Below, in pieces: positions 2,828 to 58,249 of a stretch of DNA of 64,000 nt. The DNA lies in assembly GCA_030390025.1 (NCBI GenBank), contig CM059432.1, positions 43,712,001 through 43,776,000 of the forward strand, written 5' to 3'. This DNA is from Squalus acanthias. Taxonomy: Eukaryota. The notes beneath the pieces are model-generated. The model was not told the DNA's origin. It did no database searches and saw only the letters and a list, made by a program, of their open reading frames with translations. Each line of letters opens with the position of its first letter. Position 1 is the stretch's first letter. A program made the translations under genes and the position numbers.

Positions 2828-3559
2828 TAGTTTCAACATCAAGCAATCCAGGGTCAAGTATAATGGGGGATAAATACAGAGTGAAGCTCACTTTACAATG
2901 CCCCAGTATGGTATCTATCCCAACCTCAGAAAAGCACCAGTGTGCCATTCCGATTGCTCACACAAGCTGGTGCTGTAGCCTCTCACAGTTAGATAATGAT
3001 TTGGTGCTGAGTTATCAACAATTTTGTGCTGTGGATTCATGCCTAGTAGAAAAAGGATTCAGATTGCCAAATCACATTACATATAGGACCCTTATAACCA
3101 TAAGACAAAAGCGTCTTTCAGCCCATCAGTGTAACGATGGACTGTATCTAAAATCATTTATTCCATTACTTTGAGAACAGGCCTTGTTTTGAACCCATGT
3201 CTCAGAGGTGTTTTAACCCACCTTGCCACCAAATCCCTGGTTTCACTATTTCAACATTGGTTACTACCCAGACAGTCTTGCCTGCTTGTAATACTTCCAC
3301 CTAAGGGAGCTGTATGTGTTATTCCAGCATTCTTAGAGAAAGAAGTATTAGTATTGCAACTTAGCCATCAGCAATTTGTGCATTCAAAGCAATAAATGAT
3401 TAAAAAATGTTTAAATGAGAAACTACTCCTGCAGGGCTTCCACTTTTCTGTTGGCATAAGATAAAAAGCCACAAGATGTGATGATTGAGGCCACATTCAA
3501 TTTATAGTTTAAATCATTACAAGAATGAATCAACATCATTTGAGGGAAAACAATGATGT

Positions 3560-29090: not shown

Positions 29091-31338
29091 CCATACAGCA
29101 CCTGAAGTATTGCTCTGCAATGGTACAAAGCTGCTTAAGGGGTACACACCAGGATTTGTTGATAGGCCATTGAAGGTCACAAGTAATCTCACTGATGTCA
29201 CTGCTACACTTGTAAGGCTGATTTAATTCTCTGTCCAGGCTCTAGTTCCTTAAAAGCTGATCTTCTATGGAAATTCCAGTTATGTTGGCAGCTCGTCCTC
29301 ATGAAGGGAAAGGAATGCAGATGGAGTCTACTCATGAATGCCTACTGACTTTTAGATATTAGATCTGTTTGTCGTATTCATGAAAATATCAAAAAGGTGT
29401 CAAGATTTTGCTGCACGTGCAACAGCTTTATCAATGTACTGCTGGGAGATTGCATATAGCATTGTAGAAAGATTTTATATAGAATATCACCTGGTATTTG
29501 TACAAAATTATCCATCAGTCATGGACTTGTATGTGGAACAGAATCCAAATATTCCAAAAAGAGTTTGGTTTTCTCAGCCATCTGCAGATTGTAAATCATT
29601 TCTTTTTGTTTCTTCACTATCTGATGTCACTGAGCGGCTGCAGAACATTCTGAGGGGAGAGGGTGAACAGCCAGAGGTCGTGGTCCATATTGGTATCAAC
29701 GACATAGGTAGAAAGAGGGATGAGGTCCTGCAGGCAAATTTTAGGGAGTTAGGAAAGAGATTAAAAAGCAGGACCTCAAAGATAGTAATCTCCAGATTAC
29801 TCCCGATGCCACGAGCTAGTGTGTATATAAATAGGAGGATAGAGCAGATGAATGCGTGGCTGGAGTGATGATGCAGGAGGGAGGGCTTTAGATTCCTGGG
29901 ACACTGGGACCAGTTCTGGGGGAGGTGAGACTTGTACAGGCCAGACGGGTTGCACCTCAACAGAGCCGGGACCAATATCCTTGCTGGGGGATTTGCTAGT
30001 GCTGTTGGGGAGGGTTTAAAATAATTTGGCTAGGGGATGGGAACCAGGATGTAGCATTAGAAAGGAGAAACAAGGTGCACAAAGGATTGGTAGAGACAGA
30101 TAACACAAGAGTAAGAAATAATACAGTATTAGGTGGGATCAGACTAAGAGAGAATATAAGAAGGTCCAAGATAGGTTTACAGTGCATGTGTGTAAACGCA
30201 CAAAGCGTGGTAAATAAGGTTGGTGAGCTGCAGGAGCAAATAGACACATGATGGTGTCGTGGCGATAACGGAGACCTGGCTCAAAAAAGGGCAAGATTGG
30301 GTAGTAAATATTCCTGGATATAAGGTGTTCAGGAAAGATAGGGAAGGAGTTAAGATACTGGATGGGATAAAAATTGATAAAGAAGAAGTACTAAAAAGGT
30401 TGGCTGCACTTAAAGTAGATACGTCACCTGAGGGAAGTAAAGGTGGAAATTGCGGAGGTACTGCCCATATCTTCCAATCCTCCTTAGATACGGTTGTGGT
30501 GCTAGAGGACTCGAAAATGCCAAATGTTATTCCCTTGTGCAAAAAAGGGTGTAAGGATAAACCCAGCAACTACAGCCCAGTCAGTTTAACCTCGATAGTG
30601 GGAAGCTTTTAGAAATGATAATCAGGGACAAAATGAACAGTTACATGGACAAATGTGGATTAATTAATGAAAGTCAGCATGGATCTGTTAAAGGCAAATT
30701 GTGTTTAACTAACTTGATTGAGTTGTTGGATGGGCTAACTTAGAGGGTTGATGAGGGCAATGCGGTTGATGTGGTGTACATGGACTTCCAAAGGACGTTT
30801 GATAAAGTGCCGCATAATAGGCTTGCCAGCAAAGTTGAAGCCCATGGAATAAAAGGGACAGTGGCAGCATGGATATGAAATTGGCTAAGTGACAGGAAGC
30901 AGAGAGTAGTGGTGAACAGTTGTTTTTCAGACTGGAGGAAGGTATACAGTAGTGTTCCCCAGGGGTCAGTACTAAGACCACTTCTTTTCTTGATATATAT
31001 TAATGACTTGGACCTGGGTGTACAGGGCACAATTTCAAAATTTGCAGATGACACAAATCTTGGAAGTATAATGAACAGTGAGGAGGAGAGTGATAGACTT
31101 CAAGAGGACATAGACAGGCTGGTGGAATGGACGGACACGTGGCAGATGAAATTTTACGCAGAAAAGTGTGAAGTGATACATTTTGGTAGGATGAACAAGG
31201 AGAGGCAATATAAACTAACGGGTACAATTCTAAAGGGTGTGCATGAACAGAGAGACCTGGGGGTATATGTGCACAAATCATTGAACGTGGCAGGGCAGGT
31301 TGAGAAAGCAGTTAAACGAGCATACTGTATCCTGGGCT

Positions 31339-33597
31339 GCATCAACGCCAGATTCATCAGCCGCACTCACAAGACAGTCCAGAATGTCACCCGAGCACAA
31401 CGCAACGCCATCCACGCTCTCAAGACCAACCGCAACATCGTCATGAAAACAGCGGATAAAGGAGGAGCCATCGTCATACAGAACAGAATGGACTATTGCA
31501 AAGAAGCATACTGACAACTGGACAACCAGGAACACTACAGACAGCTACCCGCAGATCCGACCAAAGAACACACCCGCCAACTCAATAGACTGATCAAGAC
31601 CTTCGATCCAGACCTTCAAAACATCCTACGCGCTCTCATCCCACGTACTCCCCGCATAGGAGACTTTTACTGCCTCCCAAAGATACACAAAGCCAACACA
31701 CCCGGACGTCCTATCGTATCAGGCAACGGAACCCTGTGTGAGAACCTGTCTGGGTACGTCGAGGGCATCCTGAAACCCATCGTGCAGGGAACCCCCAGCT
31801 TCTGTCGCGACACTACAGACTTCTTGCAGAAACTCAGCACCCATGGACCAGTTGAACCAGGAACACTCCTCGCCACGATGGACGTCTCGGCACTCTACAC
31901 CAATATCCCCCACGATGACGGCATCGCTGCGACTGCCTCAGTACTCAACACCAACAACAGCCAATCTCCAGACGCCATCCTACAACTCATCCGCTTCATC
32001 CTTGACCACAATGTCTTCACCTTCGACAACCAGTTTTTTACCCAAACACACGGAACAGCCATGGGGACCAAATTCGCACCCCAATACGCCAACATCTTCA
32101 TGCACAAGTTCGAGCAAGAATTCTTCGCTGCACAGGACCTCCAACCAACGCTGTACACCAGATACATCGACGACATCTTCTTCCTTTGGACCCACGGCGA
32201 AGGATCACTGAAAGGACTACACGATAGCATCAACAGGTTCCATCCCACCATCAAACTCACCATGGACTACTCCTCAGAATCGGTTTCATTCTTGGACACA
32301 CGAATCTCCATCAAAGACGGACGCCTCAGCACTTCACTCTACCGCAAGCCCACGGACAACCTCACGATGCTCCACTTCTCCAGCTTCCACCCTAACCACG
32401 TTAAAGAAGCCATCCCCTATGGACAAGCCCTGCAAATACACAGGATCTGCTCAGACGAGGAGGAACGCGATGGACACCTACGGACACTGAAAGACGCCCT
32501 CGTAAGAGCGGGATATGACGCTCGACTCGTCGATCGACAGTTCCGACGGGCCACAGCGAAAAACCGCATAGACCTCCTCAGAAGGCAAACACGGGACACA
32601 ACCAACAGAGTACCCTACGTCGTCCAGTACTTCCCCGGAGCGGAGAAACTACGCCATGTTCTTCGCAGCCTTCAACATGTCATCGATGACGACGAACACC
32701 TTGCTAAGGCCATCCCCACGCCTCCACTACTCGCCTGCAAGCAGCCGCCTAACCTCAAAAGTACCATCATCCGCAGCAAATTACCCAGCTGTCAGGAGAA
32801 CAGCGACCACGACACCACACAACCCTGCCACGGCAACCTCTGCAAGACATGCCAGATCTTGAACACAGATACCGTCATCACACGTGAGGACACTACCCAC
32901 CAGGTACATGGTACATACTCATGTGACTCGGCCAACGTTGCCTATCTGATACGTTGCAGGAAAGGATGCCCCAGAGCATGGCACATCGGCGAGACCATGC
33001 AGACACTGAGACAACGTATGAACGGACACCGCGCAACAATCGCCAAGCAGGAGTGTTCCCTCCCAGTCGGGGAACACTTCAGCAGTCAAGGGCATTCAGC
33101 CTCGGATCTGCGGGTTAGCGTTCTCCAAGGCGGCCTTAGAGACACACGACAACGCAAAATCATCGAGCAGAAACTGATAGCCAAGTTCCGCACTCATGAG
33201 GACGGCCTCAATAGGGATATCGGGTTCATGTCACGCTACAGAACGTGACTTGACATCGTTGTCTGTCTTTCCAGTTTTTAAAAAAACAAACACAAAAAAC
33301 AAACCCCAAAAAAGACGGAGAGAGAGGAAGGGATATGGAGCGAGATCGGCTGTAGACAGCAGGATTTGACACGTTGGACCCCCTGGGACACATCTCATTG
33401 TCTTGGCTGTGCTCTTGGTGTGTCTTTGATGTAAGGAAAGATTGTATCTCTGCAGTATCTGTGTTTATATTCTATGAACTTTTGTAGATTCACTCATTGT
33501 AACTTTACCTGAAGAAGGGGCAGGATAGCTCCGAAAGCTTGTAATTTTAAATAAATCTGTTGGACTATAACCTGGTGTTGTGCGACTTCTCATTTTT
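31339..33597 (+). mobile_element. Penelope-like element (Neptune-type), 5'-truncated, with a premature stop
   Basis: Near-identical to 56340-58576; TGA at 31512 where the other copy has CGA; YIDD RT motif; GIY-YIG reads AWHIGET instead of AWYIGET. Confidence 0.92.
33505..33544 (+). ncRNA. minimal hammerhead ribozyme in Penelope pLTR
   Basis: TTAC-CTGAAGA-A-GGGGC AGGATA GCTCC-GAAA-GCTT-GTAA. Confidence 0.75.
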
Positions 33598-43995: not shown

Positions 43996-44612
43996 ATAAG
44001 CCGTGAACACGCAATATGAAAAAATAAATAGTCACTGTATTGCTGATTAAAACAGTCAACTGAAAACAATTTCAAAGACCCAGCTGGGCCAGTGAAAAAT
44101 CAGCTAGCTTTTCACCATTAGATTCATTTAACCATTAGATTCAAAAGATAAGGTAGAGTCCATGATAGAAATATTTGACCTTCAAAATGAGTGTGCTTGA
44201 AGGAAAATTGAGCTTTTCTCATTCCATGTTTTCTTAAGTTTTACATTGTCATCAATGTTCTTGCTGCCTTGCAGCACAACTATATGGCTGCAGTTTTACC
44301 ACAGATATGGGCCCCGATCTTAACTTGCAGATGCTCTGGGAGCAGGGAGGGTGGGGCCGGGGCCCAATATCACTTGGGAGGGTGGGGCCCGATATGTGGG
44401 AAACCCGGAAGTATATCACGCACGTCTGCCAGTGGCTTTTTAACTCAGCCACCTCATTTCCATTTTACTTCTGGGTTCAACTGTCCAATCAGCGGCATCA
44501 TGCGTAATGAGGACCCGCGCGACGCGATCTCAACTCCAGTATTTAAAGGGACAATCCAAAGATGCAATTTAAGGTGTTTGGAGTTCTGGGGAAGAAAGGA
44601 GGAAGGAGAAAA

Positions 44613-44851
44613 ATGAAAGGGAGAGGTGCAAAGGCTGCACCCCGGTTCAATGACGCCTTCCTGGATGTGCTGCTGTGGGCTGTGAGGAGCCAGAGGGACA
44701 TACTATTCCCCATCATTGGGAGGAGAAAACCTGTGGCAGAAACCAAGAAGGCGTGGTTGGAGGTGGCAGAGGACATGAGCAGCAGAGCGTAGTGCCACAC
44801 TCCTGGATGCAGTGCAGGAAGCGGTTTAATGATCTAAGCAGGTCAGGAAAG
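44613..44851 (+). pseudogene. Harbinger Myb/SANT-like DNA-binding exon
   Basis: AAPRFNDAFLDVLL...KKAWLEVAEDM...SWMQCRKRFNDL (one frameshift), ending at donor AAG|GTGAGT. Confidence 0.8.
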
Positions 44852-45555
44852 GTGAGTACAGTTGCACATTCACCTACATCCTGCTGTGCGCATCAACCCA
44901 ACCCCTCACTCTGCCTTCTCAAGCCTACTCCATCACATCACTCCTCACACCCACTTACCTTGCAGGTGCACCCATCCCTCTCTGCCTATGCACTTCCTGA
45001 CATCCCCATCTATCCATCCACCACTCACCCTCATCCTTATGCAATTGAATGCTTTTCCTTCATAGTGACCCTCACCAAATGCATTCCATCCATCAGTTGG
45101 ACACATGCCATTACTGTTCACTTTTTGCTGCCCCCCCAATTGACAGCAACCAATGCAGGGATGTGAAAGGGATGTTTGGTTGTTTGAAGAACTGCTTTGT
45201 ATTAATGGCATTGAGGGAGGGGGCAAAACGAGGCTTTTGTATGTGGTTGTTAGATGGGTGCACTGGTGGAACCTAAGTAAACCTCGCAATAATCAGGGCA
45301 TCCTGGGCAGCAATGTGTGCAGCGGGTGGAGCATTGCCCTCAGCAACATCCTCCTCCATGTCTTCATCCTCCTCCTTGGAATCCTCCAAAGATGCTCTAT
45401 GCTCTGCGCCTTGGTCCTCCTGCATGTCCAAACATCGCTGCTGGGCAATGTTGTGCAGAACGTAGCATTCTGAAGACCCTTGCTGGTGTATACCGATGGG
45501 TGCCTCCAGATTTGTCCAGGCACCTGAAGCTCATTTTCAGCATGCTTATGGCTTG

Positions 45556-46459
45556 TGTAAGATTTTCAATATTTGCAGATCCCCAAAAACATATATCGAA
45601 AGGAAAAAAATAAGGACTTTGGAAATTTAAAGGAAACGTGCCTGGTCTGGGAATTCAAAGACCAGCAAAACATTACCATTTGGACAATAGGCTCTGGGGA
45701 AAATCTGCCCCACCCAAAACACAGAGCCCATAGGAATGCTAGGACCAGCAAGGAACCCAAAGCAGGAGAACAATGCAAGCTTCCATGGAACGACAATGCA
45801 ACAGGATGTAAGCCATTTGATTTGATTTAGCACAGTTGAAAGCCCATCAAAATTTCAACAAAGACAATGAACAGGCCTCACCTGAAACTCACTGCATTAC
45901 GAAACCAGTTTTCGTGTGGAGTTTTGGGGGGCGGGGGGAGGCGAAAAGGACTATAATTGCAGCAGGACCCAAGATTTCTCTCTCTTTTCGACTCGACCGA
46001 CTACGCTGGAAGCAAGGGTCTCTGGCAGCACTGCCCAGAAGCCACATGGTAAAGGAAGACGTTCGATGACCAGAATCACCATCTACTTACCTGGCTGGAT
46101 TTCGGATTTATAATACCCCTGTCTGGTGAGCATTATCCCTGATCTCCTGAAACCGAAACCTAGCTAAAAGTGGGATTTTTTTGGGAGGGATAAAGGTTTT
46201 TATTTTTCTTGTATACTGTAATTTTCCTCGCCTGTAACCGTGTGCTCCCCAAACCTGTTTAAGTGTGAAGTGTGTTTAAGTTTGTTACCTTTTAACTTTA
46301 ATAAAAGTTATAGTTCTTTCATTGGAACCTGTGGTCTACTGCATCTTTATTCACAACCCCTAAATAAGTCCAAGTTTTGAACCTGGGGCGTGGGAGCGAT
46401 TCGAACCGCTCACTGAGTCGGGGAAAGGCTGACTCTTATCACAACCCACACCCCTTACA
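45556..46459 (+). repeat. 5' LTR (904 bp)
   Basis: Direct repeat of 52039-52942; about 10 substitutions and 2 indels by eye; AATAAA at 46300-46305. Confidence 0.97.
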
Positions 46460-46461
46460 AA

Positions 46462-48261
46462 ATGGGGACCGTGGCAAGGACTTGGCAAAAGGGTTGTGAA
46501 GCAGTAGACACTGATTCAGAAGAGAGAACTGTAATGGAAGAGAGGATTTCAGATTATGTATTCAGCAAAGTGAATATGGAAAAGAAGTGGGTCACTAATC
46601 TATTAAAAACTGGGCGCCCGGTAGATGCAGCAGCTAAATGGACAGAAGGGAAGGATCATAAAAAATCCTTAGAAAAGGCAGTCTGGCTGATGTGCTTCAA
46701 GAAACAGATCCAACTTTTGGACAGACTCGTTGAAGCACAGGCAGCCGAGATTCGGGAGTCGGCCCTGGAAGTCCAAACAAAGGCCCTAGCAGGGGAGAAG
46801 TTACTGTTAGCATTGCAGGCGCTAAACCAGGAAAGGGGGCAGTTAGTGGGGGAACACAAGACCCAACAGGATTACTTACAGTGCCAGGTCACTGAGGCCA
46901 AGAACAATGAGCTGAGGTTGCGGGAAAAGAATGCCCGCCTGGCAAAACAAGTAAGAGAGCAGGAGGAGACAGTAAAAGGCTTACAGGCTGCCGAAAAGGT
47001 AATGAGCGCACAGGGGTTTGAGGGTGCGGACCACGGCCCCTGCCAGAAGCAGATAGAGAGTCTCAGCCTTGCTCTAAGGAAGGCAAGAGGCGTGGTGTGC
47101 CTCATAAGCCCAAGTGCAGCCCAGGTTGACTTTACAGGGAACCTGGGGAGAACGGTTCAGACACCAAAGATAGCGCCAAGGGACGACCCGGTTGAGGAGC
47201 GGGAGGGCCCACGACCACCACCCATAGCGCCAAGCTTTAGCGCAGTCTGGCAAGAAGAAGTGGTGGAGTTAGGGGCAGAAGCTGAGGTGGAAAAAACCCC
47301 GCAAGAGAGGCTGGGACCGGGGCCGATGTGCCCGGCCCGGCAGGACAGATTTGGCCCACCCGCTGATAACGGGGATGCGAGACCCCTCCAAAGCAAGTTC
47401 GTGGCTCCCCACGGTACACAACAGCTTAGGGTTATGGTAAGCCACCTGAGTAAACTCACCCAACAAGGGGACCCCTCAGTTCACTTCATAGAAATAGAAC
47501 AGGCAGCAAGCATTAACGGCTGTGACGATGCCGAGATGGCAAAAATGCTCCTGTTCTCACTGGACAGCCGGTTATATCAGTCTCTCTCTGCTGAGAGCAA
47601 GAGAGGACAGAATGGGTATGCGGCCATCACTGAGGAAGTTTTAGAGGCAATGGGGATGAATGAGGGAAGTCCTTTCTCCCGGGTGGAGAAAACAGTGCAG
47701 CTCGCAGGAGAGACCCCACAGGCTTTTGCAGACAGGCTGTGGCCCGTGTACAGGGGTGCTTGTGGTGGGGATCTTAACAGGGCTCACCTAAACCGGGACG
47801 AGCTGGCCCACTGGCTCCGTAGCCTAGTGGCAAACAGCTTGCCTCGGATCAAAACCCAGGCTGAGCTTTGGTTTGACCCGAAAGACCCCCGGGGCACTGA
47901 AGAGGCAGTGGTCAGACAGCTGAACCTGGCCTACCGGAACGGGAGAGGGGCGGAAGAGCCCCCACAGAAAGGGAAAGTACATGAAATAAAACCCGGCCAG
48001 AGTAGGAAGGAGTGGCATCAGGAGGGGAATAACCCTTCCAGCACAAAGCTTAACTGTTATGGGTGTGGGAAGGATGGTCACTGGAGGAAGGAGTGTAAGA
48101 ATCCTTGGAAGGATAACAAGGGAAAGAATTCCTCAGCCCCAGCCCAAAAGGCAGAGACAGGGATCCCTCCCGCCACGGTCGAGTCATTTTTGGACGCCAT
48201 GAGGTCCCTATTGACTGGCCCAGGGAAGGTAGCAGCAGCCCCATACAACCCAGACTTCTGA
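46462..48261 (+). CDS. gag: Gag polyprotein (coiled coil, capsid, CCHC zinc knuckle); start may be the ATG at 46534
   Basis: 599-aa intact ORF; MHR-like VQLAGETPQAFADRL; CYGCGKDGHWRKEC knuckle at 48055-48096. Confidence 0.92.
   Translation: MGTVARTWQKGCEAVDTDSEERTVMEERISDYVFSKVNMEKKWVTNLLKTGRPVDAAAKWTEGKDHKKSLEKAVWLMCFKKQIQLLDRLVEAQAAEIRESALEVQTKALAGEKLLLALQALNQERGQLVGEHKTQQDYLQCQVTEAKNNELRLREKNARLAKQVREQEETVKGLQAAEKVMSAQGFEGADHGPCQKQIESLSLALRKARGVVCLISPSAAQVDFTGNLGRTVQTPKIAPRDDPVEEREGPRPPPIAPSFSAVWQEEVVELGAEAEVEKTPQERLGPGPMCPARQDRFGPPADNGDARPLQSKFVAPHGTQQLRVMVSHLSKLTQQGDPSVHFIEIEQAASINGCDDAEMAKMLLFSLDSRLYQSLSAESKRGQNGYAAITEEVLEAMGMNEGSPFSRVEKTVQLAGETPQAFADRLWPVYRGACGGDLNRAHLNRDELAHWLRSLVANSLPRIKTQAELWFDPKDPRGTEEAVVRQLNLAYRNGRGAEEPPQKGKVHEIKPGQSRKEWHQEGNNPSSTKLNCYGCGKDGHWRKECKNPWKDNKGKNSSAPAQKAETGIPPATVESFLDAMRSLLTGPGKVAAAPYNPDF
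46463..46481 (+). promoter_or_regulatory. primer binding site, tRNA-Arg(UCG)-like
   Basis: TGGGGACCGTGGCAAGGAC, separated from the LTR end by 3 nt, versus the complement of the vertebrate tRNA-Arg-TCG 3' end TGGCGACCGCGGCAGGAC (recalled, imperfect match). Confidence 0.7.
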
Positions 48262-49020
48262 CTGGAACCAGCGCAGCCTGCCTACTTGTGTCCCCTTGAA
48301 AGACACGCACAGGAAGTGACCTCCTGTAAGGGGGCCAGGTTAAATGAGCAGGCCTTACGGGAGGAGAACGCCCGCTTAATGGGGAAAGTAGACGGGCTAG
48401 AAGGGCAGCTTAGAGACATAAAGGCAGCCTACAGGGTAGCCAGGAGCAGGGAGTATGAGGATTTAAACCATGGGCCCTGTGAGGAAAGGATAAAAGGTCT
48501 GACCCAAGCCCTATCCAAAGCCAGAGGGATGGTTTGCTCAACAACCCCAGGGGAATTCACCACCCCGCAGTTGCAAGCCATGGTAGCAGAGTTGACCAAA
48601 CTAACAGAGGATAGAAATCTCCAGCCTGCAGCCGGTGAGATTTCACAGAATGCACAAGCAGGGGCGGTGGCCTGTCTTAGGGGAGGGGCCACCCCACCCA
48701 CCGTTTGGGACATTCCCCCAATCCTCTGGGATTTAGAGGAGGAGGAGCCCGAACCAGATAGCCCCGCCCCCGATCCAGGTGTTGAACCAGCACCAGGCTG
48801 CGAAGAGTCACCTGACCCTGAAACAGGTTTAGAAGAGGTACAGCCTGAGGATAGAAATCCCCAGCCAGTGGCAGTGGAAGATTCACAGACCACACAACAG
48901 GGGGCAGTGGCTCATGTTAAAGACCCACCAGCCAGAAAACCCCCACCAGCCAGAGCCCCTAGAAGGTCCCCACGTACGCCACAGCCAAAGAAACCGTGGT
49001 CACCAGGCTCCCCAATTTAA
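48262..49020 (+). CDS. in-frame ORF after the gag UGA: Gag-paralogous coiled coil plus acidic/Pro-rich and basic tail (putative readthrough extension)
   Basis: Same frame as gag; 252 open codons after TGA-CTG; 30/68 aa identical, ungapped, to Gag 46897-47100. Confidence 0.75.
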   Translation: MEPAQPAYLCPLERHAQEVTSCKGARLNEQALREENARLMGKVDGLEGQLRDIKAAYRVARSREYEDLNHGPCEERIKGLTQALSKARGMVCSTTPGEFTTPQLQAMVAELTKLTEDRNLQPAAGEISQNAQAGAVACLRGGATPPTVWDIPPILWDLEEEEPEPDSPAPDPGVEPAPGCEESPDPETGLEEVQPEDRNPQPVAVEDSQTTQQGAVAHVKDPPARKPPPARAPRRSPRTPQPKKPWSPGSPI

Positions 49021-49370
49021 AAGGGCCGCCCCTCAAGCCAGGGGCCGATCTGAGGACAGAGGTTCCCGGCCAGCAGCCATAGGCTGCAAGGGACCAAAGG
49101 TACAGGACAGGGCGGCCACACCAAAGGGAGTAGGGTGCTGCAGTCCTGACAGGAGTTAGGCTAGCCGTCCGGAGACGGGCGGCGAATGTACATAGCTTTT
49201 GTTTATTAAATTTTGAGATTGTTAAGTTTGGGTGTTTTTAGTTAAATTTTAAGTAAGGTGGTTGGTAGTTTTAAAATGTTATAATTTCAAGAGTGTTTTG
49301 TATTGAGTCGAGGTCGCAAGACCCGACTATGCTTCACCCAAGCCAGAGAATCTACTCGGGACCTGGCTAT

Positions 49371-49392
49371 ATGCTCTTGTGTCTCCTTACAG
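49371..49392 (+). promoter_or_regulatory. putative env splice acceptor
   Basis: TGCTCTTGTGTCTCCTTACAG|A, 14 nt upstream of the signal-peptide ATG at 49407. Confidence 0.65.
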
Positions 49393-49406
49393 AAGGGATT
49401 GTCGAT

Positions 49407-51773
49407 ATGAAGGGGGGCATACTCCTACTCGCTCTGATAGGAATGAGCGCTGGGAGGCGAGGTGACGTGGAGGACTCCCACATCTATGGGTGCTCAGGAG
49501 TGAGAGCACCAGTCGTCACCGCAGGGGGTGGCGAGCGGGGAGTGGAGGAGCTCGCCATCTACTTCCACGAGGGAAGGTGGCCAGGGTGGCTGGGGTCCAA
49601 CTCTACTAAATATTCCAACCAGCCCGGGTTCACGTACGGGGAGGCCTCCCTCCCATGCCCCAGAATACAGATCGTTGCCACAAGGGTCAGTGTCACCGAG
49701 GGGAAGCGTGTGTGCCTTATCTGTAAGGGACGAATTCCCCTAAATAGGTGGTGGTGGCTCAGGAAGCTGAGCAGGGACGCAGGGGACCATACAGCCGACT
49801 GGGAAAGATTAGGGAACGACACCCACCGGACAATCACAGGGACCCAAGGAGGAGTCAGTGTTTGTTGGGATAAGTGGTGGGAGTCGGAACAGGGAGTCTA
49901 TGTTTGTATGTGGGGATCAGAGGAAGCCTGCCCCACAGGGGTATCCATCATCTTCTCCAGCCAATGGCAGGATGCCGGGGAGGGGATAGGGTGGGATTCT
50001 AGCCTGCATGGGTGCGTGGTCCCACACATTCCGGTCCCAGTTAATGCCACTGAACTTGTGGCACACACCCGAAAGCCCCTACCCACGACCCAGGTACCGA
50101 AAACCCTGGAAGAAAAGTGCCCTACCACCACCAAGGGACCAGGGAATGGGTTAGTCCTAGTACCAATCGAAAAGGTACTATACCAGGGGGTACACTATGC
50201 AGTAGCTTCAGTAATATTAAACCTCACCGAGGTATACTTACCTGAGTGGTGTCCTAAGGAGACGGAGCAACTGTACCAGGCCCTGCTAAAGGAAATGTTT
50301 AGGAAATTTTACGAATTTGATTTTGCCAATATAGACAAAGTAGAGCTATACAGAATACACCCTGAGAACCCTATGGGCACGGGTAGACAAAGAAGGGGAG
50401 CCTGGAATGATGTCTTCACTGCCTATAGTACAGGGTCCTCTGTAATAAATAGCCTGGATGACATGGAATTACAGACACAGATAAATGGTTTAAAAACCCA
50501 GTTAAGAAAGATCCTGAAGGATGGGGACACAGTGGTAGGCTCAGAGCTACATGAGGACCAAGCTATGACGGTTCATTTAAAGGAAATTATTGCAGAATTG
50601 GAAAGGCATGCCAAAACAGTAAATGCACTCATACGGGAGGATAGAAATGCATCGGATCAGGCTGCACAGAATGAGGTGTGTGTGCTGTACGGGGCATGGT
50701 TGCTGGGCGAGGGCCGTAGCAACCTGGAGGATTTAAAGCAAGGTTTAGTCCCCTCCTGGATCAGCAACAAGCACCTCGCAGCCCTCCACCCATTTAGTAA
50801 TTCGCTGAGCCCATGCCAATTTCGTCTAGCCTCTGAAGCCTACCCTGTCCCAATAGATTGTGGACGTTCAAATCACACTATCATGGGGATAGTAGTGAGA
50901 ATGCCGGTCATGAGTGGGACAGCCCGACCCGTACCGGTATACAGGGTGGAGAACATTGGAGTCATTCAAGGGGGTGCACACATCCGTTTTACAGCGGTCC
51001 CACCTTATGTCATAAAGTGGGAGCACGCCATGACAGGTACTGACCTCTCCGGGTGCCGGAGCCGGGGTTCACACATAATACTGTGTCCCCAGCACTTGAA
51101 CGCCTATTCGAAACCACAGTGCGGGTTTAAAGCTGCTGGCGCACGACCTATCAATTGTACCATGGAGGTGATGGCACACGGCCATGTTTCCCCACAGGTA
51201 GCATATATAGGGGGTGGGACATATTGTGTCACCACAGGTGCGTCCCACTACCAGCATGGACACTTCTGGTGTCCGGTAAGTGACAGCAGTTTCTGCTTTA
51301 AACCCGAGGCAGAAGTTCAAGTGGCCCAGGAACGGATTGTCCCCATCCCTGAACCCTCCACTGTTCACCTCACTGTAACACAAAATTTCACCAACCTGCA
51401 AAAATATGTAGCACATTTTGGCTATGAAATTCCCCCTCTACCAGAACGCCTTACCAAGTTACTAAAAGCTGTAGAGCTCTCTCAAAAACATTTCTACACT
51501 TTAGAACAGAATACACACGAGATAGAGCGAGAGATTCAAGGTATCACAGTCCCACCCTGGTGGGACATCTTCGAAAACATAGAGGTCCCTTCATGGGTCA
51601 GAATGGCTTCCCACCTCCTCGTAGTTTGCCAACTGGGAATAGTATTGTACCTGGTGTGCACTCAGTGCAAGGGAAAGGGCAGAATACTACAGTTCCGAAA
51701 TGAAAGGACTTGGAGGAAGCATTATGCTGAGGTGAGATACACCTGTTTGAATTTTTTTATTCTGTGTTCCTGA
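49407..51773 (+). CDS. env: envelope glycoprotein, class I F-type fusion protein with putative N-terminal Ig-like domain (788 aa)
   Basis: Signal peptide MKGGILLLALIGMSAG; furin site RQRR (50385-50396); heptad repeats; Cys-rich beta region; Trp-rich juxtamembrane segment; TM ~51603-51659; several NxS/T sites. Confidence 0.9.
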   Translation: MKGGILLLALIGMSAGRRGDVEDSHIYGCSGVRAPVVTAGGGERGVEELAIYFHEGRWPGWLGSNSTKYSNQPGFTYGEASLPCPRIQIVATRVSVTEGKRVCLICKGRIPLNRWWWLRKLSRDAGDHTADWERLGNDTHRTITGTQGGVSVCWDKWWESEQGVYVCMWGSEEACPTGVSIIFSSQWQDAGEGIGWDSSLHGCVVPHIPVPVNATELVAHTRKPLPTTQVPKTLEEKCPTTTKGPGNGLVLVPIEKVLYQGVHYAVASVILNLTEVYLPEWCPKETEQLYQALLKEMFRKFYEFDFANIDKVELYRIHPENPMGTGRQRRGAWNDVFTAYSTGSSVINSLDDMELQTQINGLKTQLRKILKDGDTVVGSELHEDQAMTVHLKEIIAELERHAKTVNALIREDRNASDQAAQNEVCVLYGAWLLGEGRSNLEDLKQGLVPSWISNKHLAALHPFSNSLSPCQFRLASEAYPVPIDCGRSNHTIMGIVVRMPVMSGTARPVPVYRVENIGVIQGGAHIRFTAVPPYVIKWEHAMTGTDLSGCRSRGSHIILCPQHLNAYSKPQCGFKAAGARPINCTMEVMAHGHVSPQVAYIGGGTYCVTTGASHYQHGHFWCPVSDSSFCFKPEAEVQVAQERIVPIPEPSTVHLTVTQNFTNLQKYVAHFGYEIPPLPERLTKLLKAVELSQKHFYTLEQNTHEIEREIQGITVPPWWDIFENIEVPSWVRMASHLLVVCQLGIVLYLVCTQCKGKGRILQFRNERTWRKHYAEVRYTCLNFFILCS

Positions 51774-52029
51774 ATAAAGATTGTTGCTTTTTTGTGTTTT
51801 GTTCTTTTTAATAAAGATATGTGTTTTCCCAAGCAGTGCAGGGGTGTCGGACCCTCTCCGTGCTTGGTTGTGAAATAAAGATTTTCTTACCTGTATGTAC
51901 CTAAAACACCACATTTAAAGGGGAATGTATGTTTGGGGTTTTAGTTTAGGTAATACAGGGGAAGGTTGGTTTTCGGGGATCAGGAATTTTGTCCACCCAG
52001 GACGATACTGTAGTGAACTGAAGTATCGC

Positions 52030-52037
52030 AGGAGGGA
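52030..52037 (+). promoter_or_regulatory. polypurine tract
   Basis: AGGAGGGA, one base before the TG of the 3' LTR. Confidence 0.7.
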
Positions 52038-52038
52038 C

Positions 52039-52942
52039 TGTAAGATTTTCAATATTTGCAGATCCCCAAAAACATATATCGAAAGGAAAAAAGTAAGGAC
52101 TTTGGAAATTTAAAGGAAACGTGCCTGGTCTGGGAATTCAAAGACCAGCAAAACATTACCATTTGGACAATAGGCTCTGGGGAAAATCTGCCCCACCCAA
52201 AACACAGAGCCCATAGGAATGCTAGGACCAGCAAGGAACCCAAAGCAGGAGAACAATGCAAGCTTCCATGGAACGACAACGCAACAGGATGTAAGCCATT
52301 TGATTTGATTTAGCATAGTTGAAAGCCCATCAAAATTTCAACAAAGACAATGAACAGGCCTCACCTGAAACTCACTGCATTACGAAACCAGTTTTCGTGT
52401 GGAGTTTTGGGGGGCGGGGGGAGGCGAAAAGGACTATAATTGCTGCAGGACCCAAGATTTCTCTCTCTTTTCGACTCAACCGACTACGCTGGAAGCAAGG
52501 GTCTCTGGCAGCACTGCCCAGAAGCCACATGGTAAAGGAAGACGTTCGATGACCAGAATCACCATCGACTTACCTGGCTGGATTTCGGATTGTTAATACC
52601 CTGTCTGGTGAGCATTATCCCTGATCTCCTGAAACCGAAACCTAGCTAAAAGTGGGATTTTTTTGGGAGGGATAAAGGTTTTTATTTTTCTTGTATACTG
52701 TAATTTTCCTCGCCTGTAACCGTGTGCTCCCCAAACCTGCTTAAGTGTGAAGTGTGTTTAAGTTTGTTACCTTTTAACTTTAATAAAAGTTATAGTTCTT
52801 TCATTGGAACCTGTGGTCTACTGCATCTTTATTCACAACCCCTAAATAAGTCCAAGTTTTGAACCTGGGGCGTGGGAGCGATTTGAACCGCTCACTGAGT
52901 CAGGGGAAAGGCTGACTCTTATCACAACCCACACCCCTTACA
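52039..52942 (+). repeat. 3' LTR (904 bp)
   Basis: Direct repeat of 45556-46459; AATAAA at 52782-52787. Confidence 0.97.
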
Positions 52943-54454
52943 CTTGTTTGATGACACATCTAGTGGTGATATGACATTCATTGTAGCACTCCTGTACCTC
53001 ATTCCTCGGGTTTCTGAGAGGTGTCATCAGCCATGTTTTAAGTGGGTATCCCTTGTCTCCTAGCAGCCACCCGTTAACTCTGCTTCCAGATTGAAGACAT
53101 CAGGGAGGTTGGACTGCCGCAGGACTAAAGCATCATGGCAGCTCCCCAGGAATCTGGCGCACACCTGCATAAACATCTTTTTGTGGTTGCATACCAGCTG
53201 CACATTGATGGAGTGGAAGGCCTTGAGGTTGACGAACACTCCTGGGTGTTCTGGGGGTGCCCTGATTGCCACATGTGTGCAGTCGATGACACCCTGCACC
53301 TGTGGGAAGCCAGCCAGAGCCGCAAACCCAAGCGCCCGCTCATTCTGACTGGCATCATTGCAGGCAAAATTGACATCATTGCTGGCCCTGGCAAACAAGC
53401 CATCAGTCACCTGTCTTATACATTTGTGGGCGGCCAACTGGGAGATCTTGCAAATGTCTCCAGCAGAGCGCTGTAAGGAGCCAGAAGCAAAAAGGCTGAG
53501 GGCGGTGGTAACTCTGACAGCTAGGCCACTAGTTTCAGCTGGTGCTGCTGCTAGTCATCTTGGTCCTCATCTGAGGTCCAGTCTAAGGCAGCATAAGCGG
53601 CACCCATCCTGATCTGATAGATCAGCGCTCCAAATTGTAGATCAGACCTCCAAAGTGTAGAAATAAAGCACTGTGAATAAACTCTTTCCCACTAGCAAGT
53701 AAGAAAGCAGCTGTGAGTACTGAGTATTTATTGGCATATTTCCCTGAGATTGATTAAGCCTCCTCAATTGCCACTGTGCACTCGCCTTGCTTTCACTGGC
53801 GAGTTCCAGGAAGCCTGGGAAACCCATGGACGTGACATTAAGCACAAAAACATAGGTCAAAATCACTTTAATTGATCGATTTACATCTGATGATTGGCAA
53901 ACCCGCCTCTCCCGAGGGGGTTGCATGCACGCAGCCTAACGCGCTCCAGTCAAATACGGAAGTCGGCTTCTCGACGCGCTGACATTTTTGCCACTTTTAT
54001 CTCCCCACCCGCACCCAAACCCACGTGCTCTTCCATGGTCTCACAGAGAGATATCTGTAGAGGGCTGCTCTCAATGAGGCAGACCAGAATGTTATGAGGG
54101 AATGGCAAAATGGATTTTGTCTGTGTTGAATTTTTAAACTTGTATTCTGAAATGCTTAATTCAGCATATAAGTGGTTAACTCTCAAGGCAGTACACACTT
54201 TTTTAAATAGAAAAACAACAACCTGAACCAGTCTGTTTGTCTATTTGATTTCCCTCAAGGTGTAAGTTCTTTTAGGCTCACGCAATAATTATTTGAAGTG
54301 TTAATTAGTTAATCATCCCAGTAGTCGCCACTACTTAGAATTCTAAACATCTTGTGGCATTGTTAGCAATGGTTCCATTGTCCCTCAGGAGTACCATTGT
54401 GACATCTGGTTGGTTGAGATGTTGTTTTATTTAATCCATACAGCATGGGGCTAT

Positions 54455-55748: not shown

Positions 55749-56104
55749 AGTTACAATGAGTGAATCTACAAAAGTTCACAGAATATAAACACAGAAACTG
55801 CAGAGATACAATCTTTCAGGGAAGGTGTCCTTACATCAAAGACACACCAAGAGCACAGCCAAGACAATGAGATGTGTCCCAGGGGGTCCAATGTGTCAAA
55901 TCCTGCTGTCTGCAGTGTTTTTTTGGGGGGGTTTGTTTTTTGTGTTTGTTTTTTTTGTGTTTGTTTTTTAAAAACTGGAAAGACAGACAACGATGTCAAG
56001 TCACGTTCTGTAGCGTGACATGAAACTGATATCCCTATTGAGGCCGTCCTCGTGAGTGCGGAACTTGGCTATCAGTTTCTGCTCGATGATTTTGCGTTGT
56101 CAAA

Positions 56105-58249
56105 ATGGACCCCATCGGTCTCGCGGCAGACACAGAGGAATTCATCAGGAGAATGAGGATCCGGGAATACTACCACAAATCCCAAGATGTCAGCAACAAA
56201 CCCAATGAGACAATCAATGATCCGGAACAGCAGACAGAGGGAACCGCAGTGCAGCAACCGAAGAAGAAAGAGTCAAATTGGACCCCTCCGGAGGGTCGCT
56301 GCCCTAAGCTTGACATGTATGCTCAAGCTGTCAGGAAATGCATCAACGCCAGATTCATCAGCCGCACTCACAAGACAGTCCAGAATGTCACCCGAGCACA
56401 ACGCAACGCCATCCACGCTCTCAAGACCAACCGCAACATCGTCATCAAACCAGCGGACAAAGGAGGAGCCATCGTCATACAGAACAGAATGGACTATTGC
56501 AAAGAAGCATACCGACAACTGGACAACCAGGAACACTACAGACAGCTACCCGCAGATCCGACCAAAGAACACACCCGCCAACTCAATAGACTGATCAAGA
56601 CCTTCGATCCAGACCTTCAAAACATCCTACGCGCTCTCATCCCACGTACTCCCCGCGTAGGAGACTTTTACTGCCTCCCAAAGATACACAAAGCCAACAC
56701 ACCCGGACGTCCTATCGTATCAGGCAACGGAACCCTGTGTGAGAACCTCTCTGGGTACGTCGAGGGCATCCTGAAACCCATCATACAGGGAACCCCCAGC
56801 TTCTGTCGCGACACTACAGACTTCTTGCAGAAACTCAGCACCCATGGACCAGTTGAACCAGGAACACTCCTTGCCACGATGGACGTATCAGCACTCTACA
56901 CAAATATCCCCCACGATGACGGCATCGCTGCGACAGCCTCAGTACTCAACACCAACAACAGCCAATCTCCAGACGCCATCCTACAACTCATCCGCTTCAT
57001 CCTTGACCACAATGTCTTCACCTTCGACAACCAGTTTTTTACCCAAACACACGGAACAGCCATGGGGACCAAATTCGCACCCCAATACGCCAACATCTTC
57101 ATGCACAAGTTCGAGCAAGACTTCTTCGCTGCACAGGACCTCCAACCAACGCTGTACACCAGATACATCGACGACATCTTCTTCCTTTGGACCCACGGCG
57201 AAGGATCACTGAAAGGACTACACGATAGCATCAACAGGTTCCATCCCACCATCAAACTCACCATGGACTACTCCTCAGAATCGTTTTCATTCTTGGACAC
57301 ACGAATCTCCATCAAAGACGGACGCCTCAGCACTTCACTCTACCGCAAGCCCACGGACAACCTCACGATGCTCCACTTCTCCAGCTTCCACCCTAACCAC
57401 GTTAAAGAAGCCATCCCCTATGGACAAGCCCTGCGAATACACAGGATCTGCTCAGACGAGGAGGAACGCGATGGACACCTACGGACACTGAAAGACGCCC
57501 TCGTAAGAACGGGATATGACGCTCGACTCATCGATCGACAGTTCCGATGGGCCACAGCGAAAAACCGCATAGACCTCCTCAGAAGGCGAACACGGGACAC
57601 AACCAACAGAGTACCCTACGTCGTCCAGTACTTCCCTGGAGCGGAGAAACTACGCCATGTTCTTCGCAGCCTTCAACATGTCATCGATGACGATGAACAC
57701 CTTGCTAAGGCCATCCCCACGCCTCCACTACTCGCCTTCAAGCAGCCGCCTAACCTCAGAAGTACCATCGTTCGCAGCAAATTACCCAGCTGTCAGGAGA
57801 ACAGCGACCACGACACCACACAACCCTGCCACGGCAACCTCTGCAAGACATGCCAGATCATGAACACAGATACCGTCATCACACGTGAGGACACTACCCA
57901 CCAGGTACATGGTACATACTCATGTGACTCGGCCAACGTTGTCTACCTGATACGTTGCAGGAAAGGATGCCCCAGAGCATGGTACATCGGCGAGACCATG
58001 CAGACACTGAGACAACGTATGAACGGACACCGTGCAACAATCGCCAGGCAGGATTGTTGCCTCCCAGTCGGGGAACACTTCAGCAGTCAAGGGCATTCAG
58101 CCTCGGATCTGCGGGTTAGCGTTCTCCAAGGCGGCCTTCGAGACACACGACAACGCAAAATCATCGAGCAGAAACTGACAGCCAATTTCCGCACTCATGA
58201 GGACGGCCTCAATAGGGATATCGGGTTCATGTCACGCTACAGAACGTGA
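56105..58249 (+). CDS. Penelope RT + GIY-YIG endonuclease polyprotein (714 aa, probably N-terminally truncated)
   Basis: IKPADKG, LPKIHK, GRPIVS, DVSALYTNIP, GTAMG, YIDDIF; Cys linker PCHGNLCKTC; VYLIRC...YIGET...RMNGH. Confidence 0.93.
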   Translation: MDPIGLAADTEEFIRRMRIREYYHKSQDVSNKPNETINDPEQQTEGTAVQQPKKKESNWTPPEGRCPKLDMYAQAVRKCINARFISRTHKTVQNVTRAQRNAIHALKTNRNIVIKPADKGGAIVIQNRMDYCKEAYRQLDNQEHYRQLPADPTKEHTRQLNRLIKTFDPDLQNILRALIPRTPRVGDFYCLPKIHKANTPGRPIVSGNGTLCENLSGYVEGILKPIIQGTPSFCRDTTDFLQKLSTHGPVEPGTLLATMDVSALYTNIPHDDGIAATASVLNTNNSQSPDAILQLIRFILDHNVFTFDNQFFTQTHGTAMGTKFAPQYANIFMHKFEQDFFAAQDLQPTLYTRYIDDIFFLWTHGEGSLKGLHDSINRFHPTIKLTMDYSSESFSFLDTRISIKDGRLSTSLYRKPTDNLTMLHFSSFHPNHVKEAIPYGQALRIHRICSDEEERDGHLRTLKDALVRTGYDARLIDRQFRWATAKNRIDLLRRRTRDTTNRVPYVVQYFPGAEKLRHVLRSLQHVIDDDEHLAKAIPTPPLLAFKQPPNLRSTIVRSKLPSCQENSDHDTTQPCHGNLCKTCQIMNTDTVITREDTTHQVHGTYSCDSANVVYLIRCRKGCPRAWYIGETMQTLRQRMNGHRATIARQDCCLPVGEHFSSQGHSASDLRVSVLQGGLRDTRQRKIIEQKLTANFRTHEDGLNRDIGFMSRYRT

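Follow-up and report, generated by a model that had tools for sequence, protein, structure and literature searches.

The open reading frame (ORF) that follows gag in an enzyme-less endogenous retrovirus (ERV) of Squalus acanthias is, judged from its sequence, a hollowed-out pol: the two ends of a lost pol gene joined in frame by captured gag pieces. The feature is real and conserved, and it is probably expressed as a readthrough product of the gag stop. We analyzed the element within a 64-kb stretch of DNA, hereafter the window; its features are listed in Table 1.

A young LTR element, an enzyme-less ERV, spans 45556-52942. Comparison of the LTR pair gave 893 matches, 10 mismatches and two 1-nt gaps, in agreement with the ~99% identity given in an earlier note on this DNA. 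Counted from its first ATG (46462), Gag is 599 aa long; this ATG lies 2 bases past the 5' LTR, in the stretch 46460-46480, and overlaps the expected primer-binding site. We assigned a putative capsid-like region in gag from the layout, and the zinc knuckle matched zf-CCHC at E 0.0025, a score that falls short of Pfam's cut-off. Language-model (Atlas) features of env matched Fusion_gly and Baculo_F at 0.90-0.91. The Pfam search of env did not match PF00523, and single-sequence fold prediction of env gave a model too poor to use (pLDDT of 36). The N-terminal part of env (49659-49907) had a weak Ig_3 match (E 0.077). The provirus interrupts what we take to be a Harbinger-type DNA transposon (44500-45555 and 52943-53600, with Myb-like and nuclease-like fragments). 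Elsewhere in the window are CR1/L2-type LINE fragments and two near-identical RT plus GIY-YIG-type frames (31338-33248 and 56090-58249; 99% over the block compared), which are presumably Penelope-like.

Table 1. Features of the element and of its post-gag frame in the window
Feature	Position	Strand	Remarks
5' LTR (TG...CA)	45556..46459	+	TSD CTTG before it at 45552-45555
gag	46462..48261	+	N-terminal coiled-coil region, putative capsid-like region, zinc knuckle; TGA end
gag stop and 3' context TGA CTGG	48259..48265	+	likely readthrough signal
post-gag ORF	48262..49020	+	gag frame; 252 open codons (48262-49017)
pol codons 1-13 (LEPAQPAYLCPLE)	48262..48300	+	end approximately at predicted start of mature protease
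captured gag piece 1 (D lineage)	48298..48324	+	then 30-nt in-frame deletion relative to donor
captured gag piece 2 (coiled-coil region to HGPC...VC motif)	48327..48555	+	then 177-nt in-frame deletion
captured gag piece 3 (FTTPQLQAMVAEL.KL, start of capsid-like region)	48555..48604	+	D2 gag
pol C-terminal Pro/acidic tail	48607..49020	+	follows integrase SH3-like domain in pol
RRSxRxxQPxKxW motif	48961..48999	+	kept in otherwise divergent tail types
env	49407..51773	+	RQRR cleavage site; F-protein-like by language-model features; weak Ig match
3' LTR	52039..52942	+	TSD CTTG after it at 52943-52946

We reproduced the frame described in the earlier note: TTC TGA CTG lies at 48256-48264, the gag frame then stays open for 252 codons with its first ATG at 48379, and fusion to the 599-aa Gag would give the ~850 aa proposed. 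A frameshift near 49000 that is particular to the window copy closes the frame at 252 codons; a length of 292-303 codons is frequent among close relatives. The evidence supports the note in that the ORF stands in place of pol and that the element depends on a helper, but the note did not recognise pol in the first 13 codons or in the whole stretch past ~48607. The pol-bearing element L082 has a gag 96.7% identical in amino acids to the window gag, followed by TGA CTGG and then pol, and its pol tail is 95.5% identical to residues 115-248 of the window ORF. Because of these matches to L082 and other pol-bearing elements, we assign pol codons 1-13 to the start of the ORF and the pol tail to its end. 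Within pol-bearing relatives, the gag coiled-coil region and the pol tail were the only places that the ORF matched, and a separate copy was absent. At E 0.001 or better, none of 710 candidates was a whole-ORF homologue, the lengths covered being 138-441 only. The four junctions of the module all preserve the frame, and 1-4 nt are shared at three of them. Random joining would leave four founding junctions in frame 1 time in 81, a figure that ignores microhomology bias toward in-frame joins. As the module has a single origin, the four junctions represent one history. The mosaic may have been made by template switching between co-packaged genomes.

The middle 103 codons of the ORF derive from other Gag lineages. 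The earlier note had described this part as a duplicate of Gag's own coiled coil, and we recovered the alignment on which it relied: 48334-48537 matches Gag 46897-47100 without gaps (30 of 68 residues, 122 of 204 nt, blastp E 5e-16), which by that E value is far beyond chance. The duplication itself did not hold. Window positions 48334-48555 were 88-90% identical in nucleotides to 4/4 gags of the D1 lineage versus 59% to the element's own gag. D1 loci matched nt 30-258 of the insert at 87-91%, and eight D2 loci matched nt 258-307 (the 50-nt TPQLQAMV piece) at 94-98%. In a tree of 25 natural sequences, support of 100/99 united the insert with the D lineage, and the element's own gag fell elsewhere. 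We rejected self-duplication of gag on the basis of D-lineage nucleotide identity, junction anatomy and the tree; the D1 and D2 donors and the tree point to the recombinant origin that the note had listed as a check. The D Gags are ~44% identical overall to the window Gag. Because the captured pieces match other Gag lineages, the 44% identity once read as the age of an old duplication reflects lineage divergence. The capsid-side match is indeed joined after a skipped spacer, but the TPQLQAMV piece comes from a D2 gag and not from the element's own, and the skipped stretch is 59 codons of donor gag instead of a ~100-aa spacer.

D-lineage donors were reached via diverged Gag queries, and a pattern search for the donor gag found none. 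Because no single locus was best for all three captured pieces, the exact donor is not pinned down. A representative search with the insert returned 6 matches at 35-45%, of which five were Gag-like (two named from sharks) and one was spurious. In a whale-shark gene model (P0001), a Gag coiled-coil piece is fused directly to an env-like N-terminus. We also rejected a lokiretroviral smc gene as the source: the coiled-coil part is gag-derived, and there was no match to the SMC family.

All six pol-A elements fetched, which are pol-bearing relatives, have gag, TGA CTAG and pol in one frame, and the pol frame (1,487-1,513 codons) starts LEPAQPVYLCPL in 6/6. The order in pol A is protease, RT, tether, RNase H, integrase, SH3-like domain and a long tail. 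PF17919/PF17917 matched at 470-602 and PF00075 at 650-793, which places a degenerate RNase H (the tether) before the RNase H, an arrangement also common to true retroviruses. Among named RT-RNase H relatives, the closest are 'NYNRIN-like' proteins of frog and coelacanth (~50%), and the ~270-aa pol tail with its motif was missing from the frog and coelacanth relatives inspected. One pol-bearing family (L051-L062) is very young: its LTR pairs were 100% identical in five of six elements and 99.4% identical in one, and 150/150 scored matches were identical across the first 200 pol residues.

Every lineage examined ends in a pol tail with the RRSxRxxQPxKxW motif. We located the motif in frame in 64 of 96 copies, and 6 of the 8 other elements checked also have it in frame; its carriers include the window element, L051, L082, L064, L078 and L185. 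We take it to resemble nucleosome-binding motifs of the CENP-C type. Our literature search found nothing on the pol-tail motif as a nucleosome or CENP-C-type binder.

The case for readthrough is stronger than it was in the earlier note, since the stop and the first codons recur in pol-bearing relatives, where a pol frame follows them. In our judgement, readthrough of the gag stop is very likely in the pol-bearing relatives and likely in the window lineage. In alignment, residue 16 of Pol pairs with residue 5 of HIV protease, and the first in-frame ATG is codon 24; from the known fold, a start there would remove the first strands of the protease. Because Met 24 was kept in 38 of 43 pol-bearing junctions, a spliced or internal start for pol is formally conceivable. 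Codons 1-12 differed by 7 synonymous and 1 nonsynonymous changes between pol A and L082 pol (P = 0.001-0.002), and by 5 and 1 between pol A and the window ORF (P = 0.008-0.017). TGA-CT was retained across Gag lineages that are ~44% alike. The stop context was TGA_CTAG in 15/15 pol-A junctions; the 28 junctions of other pols had CTAG (18), CTCG (6), CTGG (1), TTAG (1) or a mutated stop (2).

Random stops, frameshifts or changes of frame relative to gag in other copies would have refuted the earlier note, but the window lineage does not follow that pattern: TGA was in frame in 98 of 101 distinct junctions (CTGG 88, CTAG 8, CTTG 1, TTGG 1), and the other three had TGG (two) or CGA (one). Two copies (L038 and L039) have TGG in place of the stop (position 3498) as single-copy changes, and L038 has a continuous gag-plus-ORF frame of 879 codons. 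TGA_CTGG was thus the context in 88/101 junctions of the window lineage versus 1/43 pol-bearing junctions, which suggests that readthrough may be relaxed in the window lineage. UGA_CUAG is a described mammalian readthrough motif, and readthrough in a reporter drops by half when CUAG becomes CUAC (PMC9841425, in part). TGA-CTGG is probably a weaker context than TGA-CTAG; the parts of the literature consulted held no measurement of CUGG readthrough. Single-sequence folds of the same 142 nt across lineages did not reveal a conserved 3' RNA stem-loop after the stop (z of −2.2 and −2.3 in two ORF copies, and +0.4 to +0.9 in four relatives). As the retained pol start ends approximately at the protease cleavage point, a helper protease could release the ORF product.

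Assembled contigs from four probable RNA runs cover the element, and one contig is unbroken over 47679-48451. A GT..AG env joint was present in one of the four runs (1724 to 8813 on L053). No splice joint at the gag stop was among the joints listed for these runs, whose contigs show presence and not absence. The ATG at 48379 is dispensable: of 101 junctions, 20 have no such ATG within 50 codons, and the same holds for 8 of 9 junctions of the ORF-X type.

A protein search of the 3.7-Gb genome yielded 7,745 candidates, of which 150 were scored, and the exact junction pattern had 242 matches. Our sample comprised 96 distinct copies. Most were chosen through protein similarity, a route that favours open frames, and others came from the first 30 places of the pattern search. 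In 84 of the 96, the frame ran open for 117 codons or more, two of these past a late-insert frameshift. Lesions in the insert were single-copy, with no insert stop common to several copies; a stop at codon 10 was common to 2 copies. The later changes that were common were all multiples of three: +69 nt (11 copies), −9 nt (3 copies) and −138 nt.

The module follows three different Gags that are ~45-50% alike. The second is only ~50% identical to the window Gag, and the third is the Gag of the youngest pol-bearing family (pol-A type; 12/12 loci fetched). The largest lineage, ORF X (L183-L194), has TGA CTAG, a duplicated first helix and an in-frame deletion of the HGPC-to-capsid half; it had 1,060 junction matches, and 11 of 12 copies were open to the pol stop. 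A second pol-less family (L063-L078, e.g., L064 and L071; L170, L200 and L207) has no gag insert. Behind the stop, its frame is pieced together from protease, the RNase H end, integrase fragments and tail, with three large deletions that are all in frame (relative to L072 and L082). All 30 large pol jumps were in frame and represent 4 distinct junctions (120 of 264 loci with pol matches). The 242 and 1,060 junction matches are without enzyme domains, and young pol-bearing relatives are present in the same genome; these relatives would supply the enzymes in trans.

To assess selection, we counted variants against the commonest codon per column and compared common with singleton variants. For gag (54 copies), common variants had an omega of 0.22-0.29 versus 0.79 for singletons (P ≤ 0.0002). 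Purifying selection on the insert alone was not significant (0.68-0.78 versus 1.4-1.5, P = 0.085-0.25), at low power. Codons 1-146 together had an omega of 0.58 for variants in at least 4 copies versus 1.32 for singletons (P = 0.03, CpG sites excluded). The open frame or the tail, and not the coiled coil, is the likely target of selection.

The sequences themselves show the mosaic, its donors, the common stop and the retention of the frame in several lineages. We hold with moderate confidence the fuller reading that the pol enzymes were replaced in frame by gag pieces, and that low-level readthrough of UGA-CU(G/A)G yields a minor Gag fusion with a pol tail that benefits the element in cis. Ribosomes would read through the inherited stop at a low level. 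The resulting fusion would co-assemble through its Gag part with helper Gag-Pol and would give its own RNA an advantage in cis, which is what has been reported of IAP 1Δ1. Selection would keep the frame open from the stop to the pol tail, and the captured coiled coil would be mostly a frame-keeping spacer. More tentatively, the module may be a portable cheater cassette, in which the pol tail (with a candidate chromatin-binding motif) and the captured Gag helix are hung on the element's own Gag and favour its own RNA. Such a cassette would have spread over three Gag lineages to more than 1,300 copies, within a lokiretrovirus-like shark lineage that makes Pol by UGA-CUAG readthrough.

It is unlikely that readthrough is real but the protein irrelevant, the open frame serving to shield genomic RNA from NMD so that any stop-free filler works. 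Readthrough elements are reported to inhibit NMD (PMC5360307, in part). Such shielding would suit an insert that, unlike gag, has no significant amino-acid constraint (omega of 0.7-1.0 for codons 13-50 between the window lineage and ORF X, on 10-14 differences), and a filler of another kind, assembled from pol fragments, likewise stays in frame. Against it are a pol tail whose RRSxRxxQPxKxW motif is in frame in each lineage examined, and an omega of 0.50-0.57 among common variants of tail codons 116-146, a value not significant alone and confounded with repeated tail swaps from pol-bearing elements.

We consider it doubtful that the extra Gag-type coiled coil is a decoy, with helper Gag or Gag-Pol as the partner that it binds or competes for. 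No lineage has lost the first helix, and tandem duplicates of it occur in 11 of 96 copies and 12/12 ORF-X copies; because it is 85-88% identical to a natural Gag segment, the captured helix could plausibly still oligomerise. The insert is nonetheless without significant purifying selection, its HGPC half is gone from the lineage with 1,060 matches, and a separate pol-less family has no such insert, which leaves the coiled coil as a working part, as the earlier note saw it, weakly supported at best. It is very improbable that the frame is an untranslated passenger left open by founder luck, or is expressed from ATG 48379 or by splicing: the probably weaker CTGG context, the single origin of the module and a pyrimidine run with AG dinucleotides after the stop would allow it, but independent pol deletions are also in frame, that ATG is not conserved and the listed RNA joints include none at the gag stop.

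The favoured reading, a cis-acting readthrough fusion, has its closest precedent in IAP 1Δ1, for which Saito et al. 2008 is reportedly the primary paper. IAP 1Δ1 is a helper-dependent mouse ERV with an in-frame pol deletion whose fusion product is reported to act in cis (PMC6466679, PMC7411935, each in part). The two share a large in-frame pol deletion that leaves a Gag-Pol-derived fusion frame, as well as strong amplification. Unlike IAP 1Δ1, the window element keeps gag and its stop intact, so that the fusion would be a minor readthrough product; it also retains env, its gap is filled with gag pieces of other lineages, and its module has moved among three Gag backbones.

In its layout and its dual RNase H, the family is lokiretrovirus-like, a possible member of that group. 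The pol-bearing relatives share the LTR-gag-pol-env layout of lokiretroviruses (PMC7947760, in part), whereas the window copy is without pol enzymes. The tether plus RNase H, a coiled-coil Gag N-terminus and pol-less derivatives are likenesses to lokiretroviruses and to BHIKHARI of zebrafish (bioRxiv 10.1101/2024.03.25.586437, in part), although the latter is a gag-only element. Env has a basic cleavage site, and its suggested F-like features may be a further likeness to lokiretroviruses. The frog and coelacanth hosts of the nearest RT-RNase H relatives fit the Loki host list. The main text of PMC7947760 names no cartilaginous fish among the hosts and does not mention gag-pol recoding, and our search of main texts found nothing relevant on shark lokiretroviruses. 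A further difference is that the window ORF is not a captured smc gene.

In the gammaretrovirus MuLV, gag-pol readthrough involves a pseudoknot downstream of the stop; a shared downstream structure was not found in the window lineage and its relatives. Both systems have gag and pol in one frame with a single stop between them (PMC4178896, in part). The window lineage and its relatives differ in using UGA with CUAG or CUGG instead of UAG, and the post-stop frame of the window element encodes no enzyme.

Overall, our data show how an enzyme-less retrovirus can lose all of its enzymes while retaining both recoding signal and reading frame. They point to UGA-CUAG gag-pol readthrough in a retrovirus-like lineage, of which we found no earlier description in the main texts consulted (PMC12440569 and PMC11089739 included, each in part). 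They also call for caution, as similarity to a neighbouring gene reflected capture from a sister lineage here and not an old duplication. The system separates three causes, namely a cis-acting fusion, protection from RNA decay and a coiled-coil decoy, and it bears on why deleted ERVs often out-replicate their helpers, which is known mainly from IAP 1Δ1.
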